From: Rhynchopus sp. YZ270_cl-10
Taxonomy: Eukaryota
Reading direction: 5' to 3'
NCBI GenBank assembly: GCA_964035575.1
Contig: OZ037835.1
Location: 310,001-374,000, forward strand
Length of the DNA stretch: 64,000 nucleotides
A program made the translations under genes and the position numbers. Positions 1,539 to 31,331 of the stretch are shown piece by piece (the first letter of the stretch is position 1; every line of letters begins with the position of its first letter). The notes beneath the pieces were generated by a model. The model was not told the DNA's origin and did not search any database. It saw only the letters and a program-made list of their open reading frames with translations.

Positions 1539-2492
1539 TTACGAAACACTGCAGCGATGCGCGTCTGCTTTCGTCTTGTCTCTGCAACGTGTCGGAGGTG
1601 CGTCAACCACATACTTCTTCAGCGTGCATTCACGTACTCGACTGGACACAGCACTGCTGCAGCCGGCAAGGTGGATGCTCCTCAACGAAGTGCATTTGTA
1701 AGCAGGAAGCACATCAAGGTGCGTAACTCTGCTGAGTGGTGACAGGTCGAGTTCTGTGAGGCTGCTGCAGTGGGAAAGAAAGCTTGTGCCAATTCGAGTA
1801 ACATTGCTGAGTGGCGATAAGCCTACTGCTGTGAGGCTGCTGCAGTTGTAAAGAAACCAGCCATTAATTTGTGTAACTTTGCGAAGTAGTGAAAAGTCTA
1901 CTGAAGTGAGGCTGCTGCAGTTGTGAAGAAAGCTGATACAAATGTGAGTAACATTGCTGACTGGTGATAAGTCCAGTTCTGTGAGGGTGCTGCAGTCAGC
2001 AAGAAAGTGGGTACCCACCCGCATGAGACGTGTCAACCCAGACAAGTCGACGCTTGTTAACGTTGTGCACCCGTGAAGAAAATGATCACCAATTTCCGTC
2101 ACACAAGACACAGCACTCAGATCAAGTGCTGTTAACGATGTGCGCGCCAGGAACCTATTCGGAATGACAGTCGCAACCTCCGCCTGCAGAAGCAAACACG
2201 CAACCTCAGCATCCTCCACAGTCACCAGCCGCTCTGCTGTGATGTCCTCACCCAACGCATGAAGTGCTGCTCTGGCCACGAACTTCTTACTTTTCGTCAG
2301 GATGATTGTGTCTCCAGCACTCAGCTGCGTGATGTCGTCTCCTTCGTCCTTCCCTCCGAAGCCCATGTGGAAGCTGTCCTCAGCCAACCCCACTGCAGAC
2401 GCCACCTTCTGCCGCATCGTCTCCGTTGTGTCATCCACACCCACCTCGATCACATGCGAGTTGTCTGCACAGTCCTTGATAACTACTTCCAT
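1539..2492 (-). CDS. Ubiquitin-like domain + BspA-type LRR protein with C-terminal CaaX (317 aa)
   Basis: N-terminal ubiquitin-fold pattern (MEVVIK...IEVGVDDTTETMRQKV...FGGK...DTIILT), 6 x 25-aa repeats LTxxDLSPLxxVTxIxxxFLxxCSS plus cap, ends ...RCSVS*. Three close paralogs in the window. Confidence 0.85.
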   Translation of the reverse strand: MEVVIKDCADNSHVIEVGVDDTTETMRQKVASAVGLAEDSFHMGFGGKDEGDDITQLSAGDTIILTKSKKFVARAALHALGEDITAERLVTVEDAEVACLLLQAEVATVIPNRFLARTSLTALDLSAVSCVTEIGDHFLHGCTTLTSVDLSGLTRLMRVGTHFLADCSTLTELDLSPVSNVTHICISFLHNCSSLTSVDFSLLRKVTQINGWFLYNCSSLTAVGLSPLSNVTRIGTSFLSHCSSLTELDLSPLSRVTHLDVLPAYKCTSLRSIHLAGCSSAVSSRVRECTLKKYVVDAPPTRCRDKTKADAHRCSVS

Positions 2493-2955
2493 TTTGTCTT
2501 CTATTATTTGTGTTGCTCTGTTGTGTGGTCGGGTTGTGGGAGTTGGGGCTGTGGTGGGTGAACATGGTCAAAGAAAAACAACAACGGGGCTTTTGTTTTG
2601 TGCATTCTTTTTTTTTTAGGCTTTTTGTTACCTTGCTGTTTACAAAGCACCATGATTTCCTTTGCATTCGCACACAAAGCTCTGCACATTTCTCTCCCAT
2701 GCACCACATTTTAGAAATGGGTCGATGCCACGTGAATATTTGTGAACAGCATTTAGAAGTGAAAACAGAAACAAAAAAATCATATATTTGGTGCTCCTGA
2801 CGACCCCGTACCGTGGCCAGATTATCTTTTATGATTACATGCAAGACTGTAAGGAAATTGAACACCGTACCCCTATTCCCGTCCTCTTCCACTTTTCGGG
2901 TTGGAGTAGGGCCACATTTCACCGACAGGTAGAGGTGTGTGCGTTTCGCCACAAC

Positions 2956-4324
2956 TGGGGTGGCCCGGGGGCACGGCGCTTAGTTTTTACAAAAAAAATT
3001 TAAAAAAATCACAAAAATCAAAAAAAAAATCACAAAAAATCACAAATTATCACAAAAAATCACAAACAACTACTACAAAGTCACGGTACATTTGGTCGAC
3101 TTCCTGCAATCTGAACAGGGTGGAGATCAATAATCACCACACACTCAGAAGCGAGTAAAGAGGCAGCAAAAAGCGTAGCCGGCCTCAGACAGTTGTTTAT
3201 CTTGGCGATTGCCAAGGCACGGGAGCTGGCGGAGGCTCCCCAAGCACGAGGGCTACCGACTCCAACGGAGGAGGTAGAGGTGGTGTGCGCCGACACTGAC
3301 GCGACCCCCGTTACCGAAGCGACTCCGGAAACCGACGCGCCCCGACTGCAATTTGTTACATTGCGCTGTCTACAGCACATAGCCGCCACCCACCTGCACA
3401 CGCTTGTGTTCATTGGAAGGGTCGAGCCGCCTCTCAAGGCGCGTAAGACCAAGCCGCCGCCGCGCAACATCGGATTGGCCGCCCACATGACGCTGTCATC
3501 GCAAATGATGGCATGTTCCTTCTCCAATGGATTTATTGGGTGTATGTTATACTGGGACAATGTGGTCAGATCGTCTTCAGACCTGGAAAAGTGCACGACA
3601 TATAAAAGCTTCCGACTGCGGCGGGCGGCCCATTTTCACCCTTTTCTTGTTCCTCATCCTCTCTATGTTTTCACTTGCCCCTGATGCTGACAAAAATCAC
3701 GGATTTGTCCATTTCGGCGTATTGACCCCACCACACAACTGTACTGTACTGTATTCCCAATCCCCTGTGTATACTGCGGAAATTGACCAAAAACGAGAAC
3801 TTGTCCATTTCGGAAAATTGACCCCACCACTGGCCGGACGGATTCCGGAAATGCAAATGCAAGTGACTTTTCGGCGTGACTGTGTATACTCTATGTACTG
3901 TGCACTACCACAGCACAGGACCTCATAAGCTCTCAGTAAGCTCTCACAGACTCTCACAGGTTCTCGCAGCCTGTTACGTGTCTCACGGAGACGATCATAG
4001 ATCACCCAACAAAAAATCACAAAAACCAAAAAAAAAAATCACAAAAAATCACAAACAATCACAAAAAATCACAAAACCCAAAAAAAAAATCACAAATAAT
4101 CACAAAAAATCACAAACAATCACAAAAAATCACAAAAAATCACAAAAACCAAAAAAAAAAATCACAAATAATCACAAACAATCACAAAAAATCACAAAAA
4201 CCAAAAAAAAAATCACAAATAATCACAAAAAATCACAAGATTCTTTTTCATAATGTTGTGACTTTTTGTGATTTTTTCCGAAAAAACACAACGCGCCACT
4301 TCCCTGCGCGCCCGGGCCACCCCA
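2956..4324. mobile_element. Non-autonomous TIR element, TG...CA ends, 5-bp TSD
   Basis: TGGGGTGGCCCGGG at 2956 and its reverse complement ending 4324; ACAAC on both sides (2951-2955, 4325-4329). A paralogous flank near 34780-34900 lacks this element. No recognisable transposase. Confidence 0.7.
4011..4240 (+). repeat. A-rich degenerate AAAAATCAC-type tandem repeat (shorter copy at ~3001-3065)
   Basis: Directly visible; subterminal in the 2956-4324 element. Confidence 0.85.
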
Positions 4325-29733: not shown

Positions 29734-29901
29734 TTTCCTTACTTCAAAAACTCTCTCTTTTTGAGTGATTTGGTTTTGGTTGAGACACACCAAAAGGTGT
29801 CGGTTCTGTGGAATCACTGAACCACCCATATCCTGTATCACATCGTTGATTATTCTTTCCCTGCGTTGACTGCAGGAAAGTGCGCGAACTATCGCGACCA
29901 G
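29734..29901. repeat. About 170-bp dispersed hairpin-rich repeat (block A), followed by about 155-bp block B (29903-30055)
   Basis: Near-identical A copies at ~49299-49472 and ~51185-51363, partial at ~18353-18401; B copies at ~51029-51184 and ~54464-54618. Confidence 0.85.
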
Positions 29902-30164
29902 GTTTTTTTGAAAAAGATGAAAAAAAAGCAGAGTTAAAAAAGAAGAAGAAAATCAAAAATCGTTGTGTGAAAAAAGCTTTTCTGTGAAGTGCTTTTTGTG
30001 TGTTGGCGGAGAAGAAAACAGTTTCAATAAAAGACTATCCTGCGTCGGTTTTCTTATTCACAAATTTATTATGAACAGCGTAAACAAAGTTGAATTGAAA
30101 ATACAAAGCCTTCTCGTGACAGTGTACCTAAACACAACAAACGAGTAGCGTCTCGAACGATGCC

Positions 30165-31331
30165 TTACATGCACACACATTCGCAACCGACCGTTTTCAC
30201 ATCTCGGCTACGCAATGCATGTTTTGACACAACTCTGCTCGATCCGGTGGCATTGACGTTGCTAGCTGGTATCGTGCATCCTTCCAGGAAGCCGATGCCT
30301 ATGTGATGCACACTCGTCCACCCAGACATGTCAAGTGTCGTCAATGAGTGGCAGTTGTGGAGAAAGAAGTACTCAATGCTCGCCACATTGTTCCACCCAG
30401 ATACGTTAAGTGCTGTCAACGAGGTGCAGTTGGAGAGGAAAGAGGAGCCGATGTACGTAACATTGTTCCACCCAGACAAATCTAGGGTTCGTAGCGCCCT
30501 GCAGTCGGCGAGAAAGGAGGGGTTCAGGCGTCGCACAGTGTTCCACCCAGACAAATCAAGTGTAGTTAACCCGCTGCAGTCGGAGAGGAAGCCGTTATCA
30601 ATTTGCATCACATTGTTCCACCCAGTCAAGTCAACAGTCTGCAATGACCTGCAGTGGGAGAGGAACCTCTGTGCAATTTGCGTCACATTGCCCCATCCGG
30701 TGAAGTCGACTGTCCGCAACGACCTGCAGTGGTACAGGAAGAAGTTTCCAATGTGAGTCACATTGTTCCACCCAGATATGTTAAGTGTCGTCATCGCAGT
30801 GCAGTGGGAAAGAAAGGAGCCTCCAATGTGCGTCACATTGCTCCACCCGGATAAATCAACAGTGTGCAGTGAGGTGCAGCTTAGCAGGAAGTCGTCACCT
30901 ACATGAGTAACAACTGACACATTGCTGAAATCAACTTCTGCTAAAAAAGTGCTCACCCACCTGTCCCCTTCCAAGAATTTATCGGGAATCTCAGTAACAA
31001 CTTCTGCCTGCAGAAACAAATGAACCAGCTTGGGATCTGTCAGACCTTCGAACCTCTCTCTTGTCAGCCTTGTCTCACCCAAGTCACGAAGAGCTGCAAT
31101 GGCGTCGTCCTTCTGCGACTTCGTCTTCTTCGTCAGCACAACTGTGTCCCCAGCACTCAGCTGCGTGATGTGGTCTTCGGCCATCACCTTCCCTCCGAAG
31201 CTCATGTCAAAGCCGTCTTCGCGCAACTCTGCTGCAGACGCCACCTTCCGCCGTATGTCCGCAGTTGTATCATCCACACCCACATCGACTGTGTACTTCT
31301 CTCCGTCAAAGCTCTCCGCACATATTTCCAT
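30165..31331 (-). CDS. Divergent UBL + BspA-type LRR protein with CaaX (388 aa)
   Basis: Start set at MEICAESFDG by alignment to paralogs; FGGK and ITQLSAGDT conserved; 9 x 25-aa LxTxDLSGWNNVTxIxxxFLxxC; ends GCECVCM*. Confidence 0.85.
   Translation of the reverse strand: MEICAESFDGEKYTVDVGVDDTTADIRRKVASAAELREDGFDMSFGGKVMAEDHITQLSAGDTVVLTKKTKSQKDDAIAALRDLGETRLTRERFEGLTDPKLVHLFLQAEVVTEIPDKFLEGDRWVSTFLAEVDFSNVSVVTHVGDDFLLSCTSLHTVDLSGWSNVTHIGGSFLSHCTAMTTLNISGWNNVTHIGNFFLYHCRSLRTVDFTGWGNVTQIAQRFLSHCRSLQTVDLTGWNNVMQIDNGFLSDCSGLTTLDLSGWNTVRRLNPSFLADCRALRTLDLSGWNNVTYIGSSFLSNCTSLTALNVSGWNNVASIEYFFLHNCHSLTTLDMSGWTSVHHIGIGFLEGCTIPASNVNATGSSRVVSKHALRSRDVKTVGCECVCM

Follow-up and report, generated by a model that had tools for sequence, protein, structure and literature searches.

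Ubiquitin-like and BspA-type leucine-rich repeat proteins with alternative C-terminal tails, among them CaaX-type boxes

Main finding

This analysis indicated that the window, by which we mean the whole stretch of 64,000 nucleotides under study, carries members of a large protein family whose three-part architecture is real: a ubiquitin-like domain (UBL), BspA-type leucine-rich repeats (LRRs) and a C-terminal Cys-x-x-x. Full-text literature searches gave no description of the combination of UBL, BspA-type LRR and CaaX box, in line with the original prediction, to which it had looked undescribed. With a probability of about 60%, we interpret these proteins as UBL-LRR adaptors with interchangeable C-terminal address tails, made of a non-conjugatable UBL and a solenoid of 25-residue BspA-type LRRs, joined by a three-helix linker. 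The tail would decide where each copy works, and the tails of the five window paralogs are predicted to be lipid-anchored.

Gene copies and their integrity

Inspection of the open reading frames (ORFs) confirmed five UBL-LRR paralogs, wA to wE, all on the minus strand and at the positions originally predicted, with the expected endings RCSVS, CCSVS (three copies) and CECVCM. The features, including a sixth partial copy, are as follows.

1539-2492, minus strand: wA, intact UBL-LRR gene of 317 aa ending in RCSVS (ORF, Pfam, AF2, Foldseek); UBL at about 2289-2492, three-helix linker, about 7 LRRs, disordered tail; CaaX codons 1542-1553, stop codon 1539-1541
9885-11583, minus strand: wB, 3' part, LRRs fused near 10532 to part of a second copy and ending in CCSVS; CaaX codons 9888-9899
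11584-13929, minus strand: insertion of 2346 bp splitting the UBL coding region of wB
13930-14137, minus strand: wB, 5' part, start codon and first ~70 UBL codons, frameshifted
14973-16351, minus strand: wC, frameshift-broken UBL-LRR gene ending in CCSVS; CaaX codons 14976-14987
24197-25537, minus strand: wD, intact UBL-LRR gene of 446 aa with about 12 LRRs, ending in CCSVS; UBL at about 25334-25537; CaaX codons 24200-24211
30165-31331, minus strand: wE, intact divergent paralog of 388 aa from its MEIC start, ending in CECVCM; UBL at about 31128-31331; CaaX codons 30168-30179
62218-62769, minus strand: wF, sixth partial copy, LRRs only, with a bipartite-basic tail resembling a nuclear localisation signal (NLS-like)

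An 18-bp direct duplication of the target borders the insertion in wB, which encodes a 695-aa ORF (11665-13752) that had no match in a Pfam search; wB is probably a dead, rearranged copy. In wC, a frameshift near 15743-15755 gives rise to two ORFs (15743-16351 and 14973-15752), and contigs from three of four public runs bridged this site with no difference. The MEIC start of wE is conserved, and an in-frame ATG upstream of it (31406) is absent from relatives. No UBL was found upstream of wF, whose C-terminus, ...RPKRSRDEAPEESRKRIRHAQ, is bipartite-NLS-like and not a CaaX box, a tail type common to most of its relatives.

A Cys stands exactly at position -4 in all five paralogs. A second Cys in four of them (at -5 in wB, wC and wD, at -6 in wE) and basic residues near the C-terminal Cys in all five were also seen, as predicted. 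Since wA to wE are mutually paralogous, five CaaX endings out of five do not amount to five independent events, and chance has to be judged from the wider family. This family comprises at least 419 proteins matching the UBL-linker part (residues 1-110) alone at E<=1e-3.

Of the paralogs wA to wE, two are broken (wB by insertion, frameshift and fusion, wC by frameshift) and wF is a fragment, as would be expected if the array were decaying repetitive DNA, in which most copies are pseudogenes spread by duplication and mobile elements and now functionless. In line with this, 46 of 213 relatives in an earlier pool lacked both a Cys at -4 and an NLS-like tail; several among the 46 stop within or just past the repeats, and three share the same foreign ending, ...LEGYTQRTQKERI. 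However, full-length ORFs of 300-450 aa number in the hundreds; in these Met1 never varies, the core residues of the UBL are conserved and the tails are intact, and the AF2 models are confident, which makes general decay very unlikely.

A ubiquitin fold at the N-terminus

The AF2 models of wA and wE (pLDDT 88, pTM 0.77) begin with a beta-grasp domain, continue with three helices and a solenoid, and end in a disordered tail. On the combined evidence of Pfam, PDB profile searches and AF2 models compared by Foldseek, the N-terminal domain is a beta-grasp domain of the ubiquitin fold, and the fold assumed in the original prediction is thus supported. PF00240 was matched at E<=0.01 by 85 of 107 aligned members (best 2.1e-9); among the window copies only wE matched, with 19.8 bits, under the cut-off of 25.4. 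The family profile aligned without gaps and in register to ubiquitin residues 1-56, with 16.3 bits per ubiquitin unit, a match that is marginal per unit (independent E 0.035). In both models the strands and helix follow the order beta-beta-alpha-beta-beta-beta (E-E-H-E-E-E), and Foldseek matched them to ubiquitin with TM 0.75-0.77 and rmsd 2.1-2.2 A over 71-74 columns.

No di-glycine follows the last UBL strand, where sequence and AF2 have ...DTIILTKSKK running straight into a helix, in agreement with the UBL lacking a terminal di-glycine that had been described. The position of ubiquitin Ile44 is occupied by Ser or Gly in the profile alignment, so that classical ubiquitin receptors would not necessarily bind it. 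Among 50 single-sequence PDB hits at E<=10, ubiquitin was the nearest, Rad23 UBL and ISG15 were weak, and no Ras-binding domain occurred. Kinship of the UBL with MUB/UBL3 was considered and rejected: ubiquitin was matched instead, and no MUB or UBL3 chain appeared among the best 60 of 446 PDB profile hits or among the 50 single-sequence hits. A link to ubiquitin-type systems is suggested by three relatives in which B-box zinc fingers precede the UBL, that of P0412 scoring 24.5 bits, over the Pfam cut-off, and those of P0344 and P0083 falling under it.

The altered Ile44 position and the missing di-glycine would also suit a beta-grasp acting as another binding module (Ras-binding or PB1-like) or as a solenoid cap, in signalling scaffolds unrelated to degradation. 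The beta-grasp fold indeed serves many functions, and the pTM suggests a UBL held in a fixed pose beside the linker and the solenoid. By contrast, the sequence is nearest to ubiquitin, no hit was a Ras-binding domain, and the B-box found in relatives is typical of TRIM-type ubiquitin ligases. We regard such a role unrelated to degradation as unlikely.

A BspA-type solenoid and no evident export signal

Self-comparison gave an LRR period of 75 nt, or 25 aa, and 1023 repeat units had this length too. Pfam LRR_5 (PF13306, BspA type) was matched by the window copies with E 1e-19 to 1e-43 and 70.6-145.5 bits, against a curated cut-off of 27.7, and was present in 107 of 107 aligned members. The modelled solenoid resembled two solved BspA-type LRR structures, 4fdw (172 columns, rmsd 2.5 A) and 4gt6 (186 columns, rmsd 3.5 A), each with Foldseek probability 1.00. 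The 25-aa BspA-like repeats of the original prediction were therefore confirmed. Within the repeat, the variable positions are 2, 13, 17, 20, 21, 24 and 25. The three-helix linker and 7-12 LRRs place more than 200 residues between UBL and CaaX. Pfam matches of the window copies and of the 107 members included no F-box. The C-terminal end is disordered in the AF2 models, with pLDDT<50 at residues 305-317 of wA and 378-388 of wE; these last 11-13 residues would satisfy the need of a prenylation substrate for a flexible end.

Where BspA-type LRR proteins have expanded in protists, they are usually interpreted as adhesins of the cell surface. In the present family, the repeat follows a ubiquitin fold and no export signal is evident. 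Met1 is invariant in 107 sequences and residue 1 opens UBL strand 1. Sequence inspection and AF2 revealed polar N-termini and no hydrophobic N-terminal stretch in the family; as these polar N-termini form UBL strand 1, no signal peptide is evident, as originally claimed. A role as BspA-like adhesins that are secreted or exposed at the surface, an idea put forward for the Entamoeba and Trichomonas proteins, with the lipid as an outer-face anchor, would account for the LRR_5 matches and the structural likeness to bacterial cell-surface BspA-type LRR proteins. However, prenylation takes place on the cytosolic side, the N-terminus lacks a hydrophobic stretch, and the N-terminal ubiquitin fold together with the NLS-like tails of sister proteins points to cytosol and nucleus. 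Despite the EhBspA proteins that end in CAAX, one of which was reported on the cell surface according to the part of PMC2843621 consulted, we find this extremely unlikely.

Alternative C-terminal tails

The original prediction also held that the family as a whole ends in a CaaX box, and this has to be abandoned. In a pooled set of 277 relatives, 103 had a Cys at -4, 87 had a bipartite-basic, NLS-like tail of the pattern KR-x10-KRRR and the remainder had other endings; the window itself contains the NLS-tailed wF. Counted by type in this set, tails were CVCM-type in 77 cases, CSVS in 23 and CSCS in 2, with a further 12 of the ...RSRLGDVGF type and 4 with a hydrophobic end. Because CaaX occurs in only part of the relatives and other tails occur in the rest, it is a subfamily trait and one of several alternative tails. 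Mapped onto a tree built from residues 1-125, three tail states can be explained by just 4 changes; tail classes are thus largely inherited within clades, and the CaaX boxes reflect few origins.

Retention of the box was clearest in the CVCM class. MEIC-type proteins, the subfamily of wE and a set defined by the N-terminus and not by the tail, have a Cys at -4 in 68 of 76 cases, with CVCM in 58, and the eight exceptions end within or just past the repeats. The bodies of CVCM-class members share no more than 49-71% identity with wE, the stretch between the last repeat motif and the C-terminus ranges from 13 to 34 residues, and columns -5 to -30 have an entropy of 1.8-3.6 bits. CVCM, often preceded by K-C-K, was also found on other N-terminal types (P0125, P0202, P0203, P0239). 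Taken together, these sequence comparisons make a convincing case that the class has retained its box behind a hypervariable linker.

In the CSVS class, the evidence from sequence for selection on the box is weak. The whole tail is conserved (entropy 0.5-1.8 bits at -9 to -19); in wA to wD the CaaX codons are identical, without synonymous differences, and near-identity continues for about 50 nt past the stop codon into the 3' flank, a pattern that selection explains no better than recent duplication or gene conversion. The earlier statement that CaaX is kept although the tails differ thus stands for the CVCM class, with its variable linkers, and is weakened for the CSVS class, where the flank is conserved too.

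These observations, together with the clade-wise distribution of tails, are what one would expect if the Cys-x-x-x endings, CCSVS above all, were inherited, lipid-free disordered ends that resemble each other through recent duplication or gene conversion. Two relatives (P0014, P0035) even carry RCSVS internally, with more residues after it, and X=Ser is disfavoured and not readily used by the farnesyltransferase of T. brucei (PMC3206815), from which the host enzyme may differ, the organism looking kinetoplastid-like by gene arrangement alone. On the other hand, P0015, P0029 and P0032 have tails with deletions or proline expansions that still end exactly in CCSVS, the CVCM box persists on divergent bodies, and farnesylation at CSVS is proven for human INPP5E, a protein brought to cilia by a prenyl-binding carrier (PMC9444247, as excerpted). 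Lipid-free ends are accordingly judged rather unlikely.

With regard to substrate fit, CVCM has Cys at a2 and Met at X, and CSVS has Ser at both a1 and X, so that neither contains the textbook aliphatic pair. The T. brucei farnesyltransferase prefers substrates with X=Met, again with the reservation that the host enzyme may differ (PMC3206815, in part).

Proposed mode of action and significance

From a mechanistic point of view, the adaptor interpretation would work as follows. CVCM tails would be farnesylated on the Cys at -4, and the neighbouring Cys or basic residues would then help to hold these proteins on the cytosolic membrane face, as in H-Ras and FBXL2; CCSVS tails would probably behave alike, with less certainty, and basic tails would route sister proteins into the nucleus. 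Through its LRR surface each paralog would bind a different protein ligand, and the UBL may dock the complex onto a reader of the ubiquitin fold, such as a proteasome receptor or an E2. The family would then operate like prenylated F-box-LRR substrate receptors, the UBL replacing the F-box.

An extension of this idea, which we consider speculative and quite unlikely, is a compartment-addressed intracellular receptor repertoire with swappable tails, in which the variable repeats of hundreds of UBL-LRR proteins would capture foreign or damaged proteins and the UBL would deliver them to the proteasome or an E2 without F-box or RING. Farnesyl plus palmitoyl, bipartite NLS and tail anchor would place paralogs at the plasma or flagellar membrane, in the nucleus and at endomembranes, and some members would bear a B-box in front, as an innate-immunity-like analogue of the TRIM and F-box families.

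The paralogs differ mainly in a short tail resembling a sorting label: a prenyl box, a bipartite nuclear signal or a hydrophobic anchor. Should these labels function as predicted, the family would offer a natural experiment in which one binding scaffold is re-addressed to different compartments, and a candidate class of ubiquitin-system adaptors without F-box or RING. With its many CVCM tails, the family is also predicted to enlarge the prenylated proteome of a flagellate considerably, which would be of relevance to the action of farnesyltransferase inhibitors if the organism is related to trypanosomatids.

Comparison with known systems

In MUBs, which are small, no more than a short linker separates the fold from the CaaX. 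The window family shares with MUB/UBL3 a non-conjugatable ubiquitin fold and a C-terminal CaaX, but has 200-300 LRR residues between the two. Some of the E2 enzymes are under the control of prenylated MUB (PMC4996978), and UBL3 is required for MARCH ubiquitination (PMC9001657), as far as the consulted parts of these papers go.

In H-Ras, the CaaX box is accompanied by a second signal. The sequence K-C-K-C-V-C-M resembles such Ras-type tails, with Cys and basic residues as the second signal, and CSVS is identical to the farnesylated box of INPP5E (excerpts of PMC9444247), but the attached proteins are unrelated and host prenyltransferase specificity may differ.

The known protist BspA/TpLRR multigene family likewise has no classical membrane anchor and some CAAX ends. 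Unlike the window family, with its 25-residue repeat and no evident export signal, its members are discussed as surface proteins, and neither an N-terminal ubiquitin fold nor an NLS-tailed sister class is described in the sections consulted (PMC2843621, PMC5349171).

The parallel with FBXL2 includes a degradation-docking domain, a substrate-binding LRR and a CaaX with, in FBXL2, adjacent palmitoylated cysteines (PMC9988375, consulted in part). The FBXL2 LRR was indeed matched by the family profile (E 1.3e-15), which may be generic LRR likeness. Unlike FBXL2, the window family is without an F-box, has the UBL in its place, carries BspA-type repeats and counts hundreds of members instead of one.

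Family members in the window and beyond

The UBL-LRR proteins, in which an N-terminal ubiquitin-like domain (UBL) precedes 25-aa BspA-type leucine-rich repeats (LRRs), are best interpreted as LRR adaptors of the cytosol or nucleus that carry a ubiquitin-fold handle and an exchangeable address tail. A tblastn search with the 446-aa wD protein as query found six family members in the window. The five copies of the original prediction (wA to wE) were all located, but wB and wC are broken, and a sixth, partial copy (wF) had been overlooked.

Family members and insertion in the window
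1539-2492, minus strand: wA, 317 aa, intact, C-terminus RCSVS
9888-9899, minus strand: C-terminal codons of wB, CCSVS
11583 down to about 10532, minus strand: 3' part of wB, LRRs, then an in-frame jump into the linker of a second copy
11584-13929: insertion interrupting wB, 2346 bp, flanked by an 18-bp target-site duplication
13930-14137, minus strand: 5' part of wB, first 70 or so codons, frameshifted
14973-16351, minus strand: wC, ORF split by a frameshift near 15743-15755, C-terminus CCSVS
24197-25537, minus strand: wD, 446 aa, intact, C-terminus CCSVS
30165-31331, minus strand: wE, 388 aa, intact, C-terminus CECVCM
62218-62769, minus strand: wF, LRRs alone without a UBL upstream, C-terminus ...RPKRSRDEAPEESRKRIRHAQ

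The wB insertion, possibly an undescribed mobile element, contains a 695-aa ORF with abundant Cys/His clusters near its end, for which no Pfam family was matched. The wC frameshift is real in the DNA, since contigs of three of four public runs (two studies), one of which may be the source of the assembly itself, bridge 15704-15825 without difference. Over 24000-31600, contigs from four runs were short only and cross-mapped among paralogs. All large ORFs of the window lie on the minus strand, an arrangement that, judged from this shared strand only, would be kinetoplastid-like; the DNA is most likely eukaryotic, and Rfam, tRNA scanning and the ESM Atlas neighbors of the DUF501 protein gave no taxon marker. 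The window holds members of both CaaX clades and one fragment of the basic-tail clade (wF).

Protein searches at E ≤ 1e-3 returned 1925 proteins with wD (7994 candidates scored), 662 with wE (5026 candidates scored) and 419 with wD residues 1-110 alone (861 candidates scored). The family census used the best 120 matches of each of these three sets, which gives lists skewed towards the queries. The matches listed were small clusters of 1-4 members, nearly all single, on contigs from ENA that range from 75 kb to 2.16 Mb in length, and the family would chiefly belong to one genome. Against representative proteins, the family profile gave 219,345 matches at E ≤ 1e-3, the best 150 of which were mostly giant multi-repeat LRR proteins, with 16/150 beginning at the UBL; the relatives with B-box fingers (below) came from this search. 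In viral contigs, 212 pattern matches yielded no confirmed relative. The nearest ESM Atlas clusters, one of them viral, combined DUF285 and ubiquitin domains at low scores (0.81-0.84), a hint that ubiquitin and BspA-like repeats also occur together elsewhere.

Domain architecture

The N-terminal domain has a ubiquitin fold, as had been predicted. Although Pfam "ubiquitin" matched only wE when window copies were searched singly, and under the cut-off (E 6.6e-4), it matched 85 of 107 aligned family members at E ≤ 0.01. The family profile aligned ubiquitin residues 1-56 without gaps, at 16.3 bits per unit (independent E 0.035); its very low whole-chain E-values arise because polyubiquitin repeats are summed. 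AF2 models of wA and wE (pLDDT 88.2 and 88.4, pTM 0.77) showed the beta-grasp order beta-beta-alpha-beta-beta-beta, followed by three helices, the solenoid and a tail at pLDDT <50. In Foldseek, the wA model matched ubiquitin chains (5ifr_B, TM 0.75; 7ooj_A, TM 0.77; rmsd 2.2 A over 71 columns), and also BspA-type LRR proteins of gut bacteria. Among the PDB matches listed, the UBL resembles ubiquitin, the Rad23 UBL and ISG15 by sequence, rather than MUB or UBL3. The absence of a di-glycine after it, noted originally, was confirmed in the sequence. Lys48 and Lys29 of ubiquitin are retained (profile alignment and sequence), and the Ile44 position is Ser in the family consensus and Gly in wA.

Pfam LRR_5 (BspA type) matched every window copy strongly, with a period of 75 nt, i.e., 25 aa. 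The repeat consensus, drawn from 1023 units in 275 of the 277 family proteins, is C-x-S-L-T-T-L-D-L-S-G/P-L-x-N-V-T-x-I-G-x-x-F-L-x-x; positions 2, 13, 17, 20, 21, 24 and 25 vary most, at 2.9 bits or more in these units. The repeats may bind ligands.

Tail classes across the family

Tails were of several classes, and the claim that the whole family ends in CaaX did not hold: among the 277 pooled proteins of the matches listed (three from the window), 103 have Cys at -4 (counted from the C-terminus) and 87 have a basic tail. The remainder comprises 12 ...RSRLGDVGF-like, 3 ...VVDSGIEEVDA-like, 4 hydrophobic and 68 other ends. The best 120 of the 1925 wD matches included 23 CSVS, 64 basic and 1 CRAQ tails (a basic example among wD relatives being ...RPKRSRDESPEQSQKRRRHAQ), together with 32 other endings, many of which are the basic tail, shortened. 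In a classical bipartite nuclear signal, a 10-residue spacer separates two basic residues from a basic cluster; the basic tail fits this pattern, as a pattern match, and may direct nuclear import.

Tail counts by N-terminal type were obtained by sorting the matches listed on the first four UBL residues, independently of the tail. In this set, the 76 MEIC-type proteins carry 58 CVCM, 4 CVCT, 2 CLCA and one each of CMCM, CVCA, CVCL and CVLM, the other 8 ending inside or shortly past the repeats; nearly all the closest relatives of wE among the matches listed end in CVCM. Within the same matches, MEVV-type proteins (n=23) have 16 CSVS, 1 basic and 6 other tails, MDLT-type proteins (n=7) have 2 CSVS and 5 basic tails, and basic tails are found on the MDVH, MDLN, MDVT and MDVN types. 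On a FastTree phylogeny built on residues 1-125 of 192 proteins, many forks of which are unresolved, the three main tail states needed 4 changes for a minimum of 2; tails are therefore mostly inherited by clade, with few swaps. CVCM is also found on non-MEIC N-termini (P0125, P0202, P0203 and P0239, relatives outside the window). The CSVS and basic tails are homologous in DNA through ...R-G/S-R-D and differ in the last dozen codons only.

Three relatives of different subfamilies (P0052, P0201 and P0243) share one foreign ending, ...LEGYTQRTQKERI, which cuts each inside a repeat, suggesting that one element or recombination product interrupts family repeats recurrently.

Conservation of the CaaX box

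It had been proposed that CaaX is kept although tails differ; this proved apt for the CVCM class and less so for the CSVS class. The CVCM-class box is conserved beyond chance. Among the matches listed, the bodies of this class share only 49-71% identity with wE; 13-34 residues separate the last repeat motif from the C-terminus, and entropy is 1.8-3.6 bits in columns -5 to -30 and 0-0.7 bits in columns -1 to -4. Because this entropy set was selected by ending, the independent count is Cys at -4 in 68/76 MEIC-type proteins. This Cys is invariant in 57 aligned full-length MEIC-type proteins, an alignment that leaves out truncated tails and gene models with N-terminal extensions. Second sites in the set selected by ending are Lys at -7 (52/76), Lys at -5 (32/76) and Cys at -6 (29/76), a layout resembling the second signals of Ras tails and FBXL2.

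The case for the CSVS class is weaker than for the CVCM class. The CaaX codons of wA-wD are identical, with about 50 nt past the stop nearly identical, and the entire tail is conserved family-wide, box included. RCSVS occurs at an internal position in two relatives. In favor of the box, CSVS tails altered by deletions or proline expansions still terminate in CCSVS.

Related systems and putative function

The Cys at -4 would be farnesylated, and neighboring Cys may be palmitoylated. T. brucei farnesyltransferase readily accepts Met or Gln as X, but not readily Ser, Thr, Ala or Cys (PMC3206815); human INPP5E is farnesylated at its C-terminal CSVS, after which PDE6D transports it to cilia (PMC9444247); and two cysteines adjoining the CaaX of FBXL2 are palmitoylated (PMC9988375). 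A C-terminal CAAX is described in several EhBspA proteins and in 0/911 TvBspA proteins (PMC2843621), prenylated MUB regulates E2 activation (PMC4996978), and MARCH ubiquitination requires UBL3 (PMC9001657).

UBL, BspA-type LRR and CaaX are each already known separately. No description of a family uniting them was found in the full-text literature, most subscription journals lying outside its coverage, where CVCM returned unrelated acronyms only; the available parts of the Bodo saltans and diplomonad literature describe no UBL-LRR family like this one. T. brucei ESAG8 combines a RING finger, LRRs and a nuclear signal.

The UBL might link the family to ubiquitin or the proteasome. Three longer relatives, P0412, P0344 and P0083, carry a pair of B-box-like zinc fingers and a probable coiled coil ahead of their UBL-LRR part; the B-box match was just over the cut-off in P0412 (24.5 bits) and under it in P0344 and P0083. 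Their layout is similar to that of TRIM proteins, but without a RING, and the B-box fingers are a further hint at ubiquitin-type systems. P0412 also has a C-terminal hydrophobic stretch.

Neighboring genes

Other features of the window
about 4765-5697: perfect short tandem repeat, roughly 0.8 kb, (HSI)n in one frame, all six frames open
18425-23641, minus strand: 1738-aa protein with an MGSGASK start (myristoylation-like), a mid P-loop GEGGSGKT and about two WD40 propellers at its end
26871-26945, minus strand: tRNA-Gln (TTG) called by ARAGORN across the 3' end of the 864-aa ORF
26931-29525 and 31932-34286, minus strand: pair of membrane-protein paralogs (864 and 784 aa), one on each side of wE
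36022-48165, minus strand: ankyrin-repeat tandem array that includes five full-length ORFs (515-549 aa)
56124-58031 and 59599-60336, minus strand: PP2C phosphatase extended at length on its N-terminal side, and DUF501 protein

The 1738-aa protein resembles a STAND/NWD-like NTPase; Pfam confirmed its WD40 part only. The tRNA-Gln call is probably spurious, because no tRNA reaches the gathering score of Rfam at this position. The 864- and 784-aa proteins each combine a hydrophobic N-terminal segment and a second span with a large domain presumed to lie outside; Pfam gave weak matches only, to HAMP (E 0.021) and to a PDC sensor (E 0.019). On visual inspection, their C-terminal part is reminiscent of a degenerate class III cyclase domain, for which Pfam gave no match. 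A further ankyrin-repeat copy is apparently split (ORFs 42394-43335 and 43271-43933). Every protein of the ankyrin array begins with MPKRHADSTQDENPRKRRQLS, a bipartite-basic motif that closely resembles the basic tail at the C-terminus of the LRR family, but lies at the opposite end. The DUF501 protein has a C-terminal basic stretch, KKRRRKKR.
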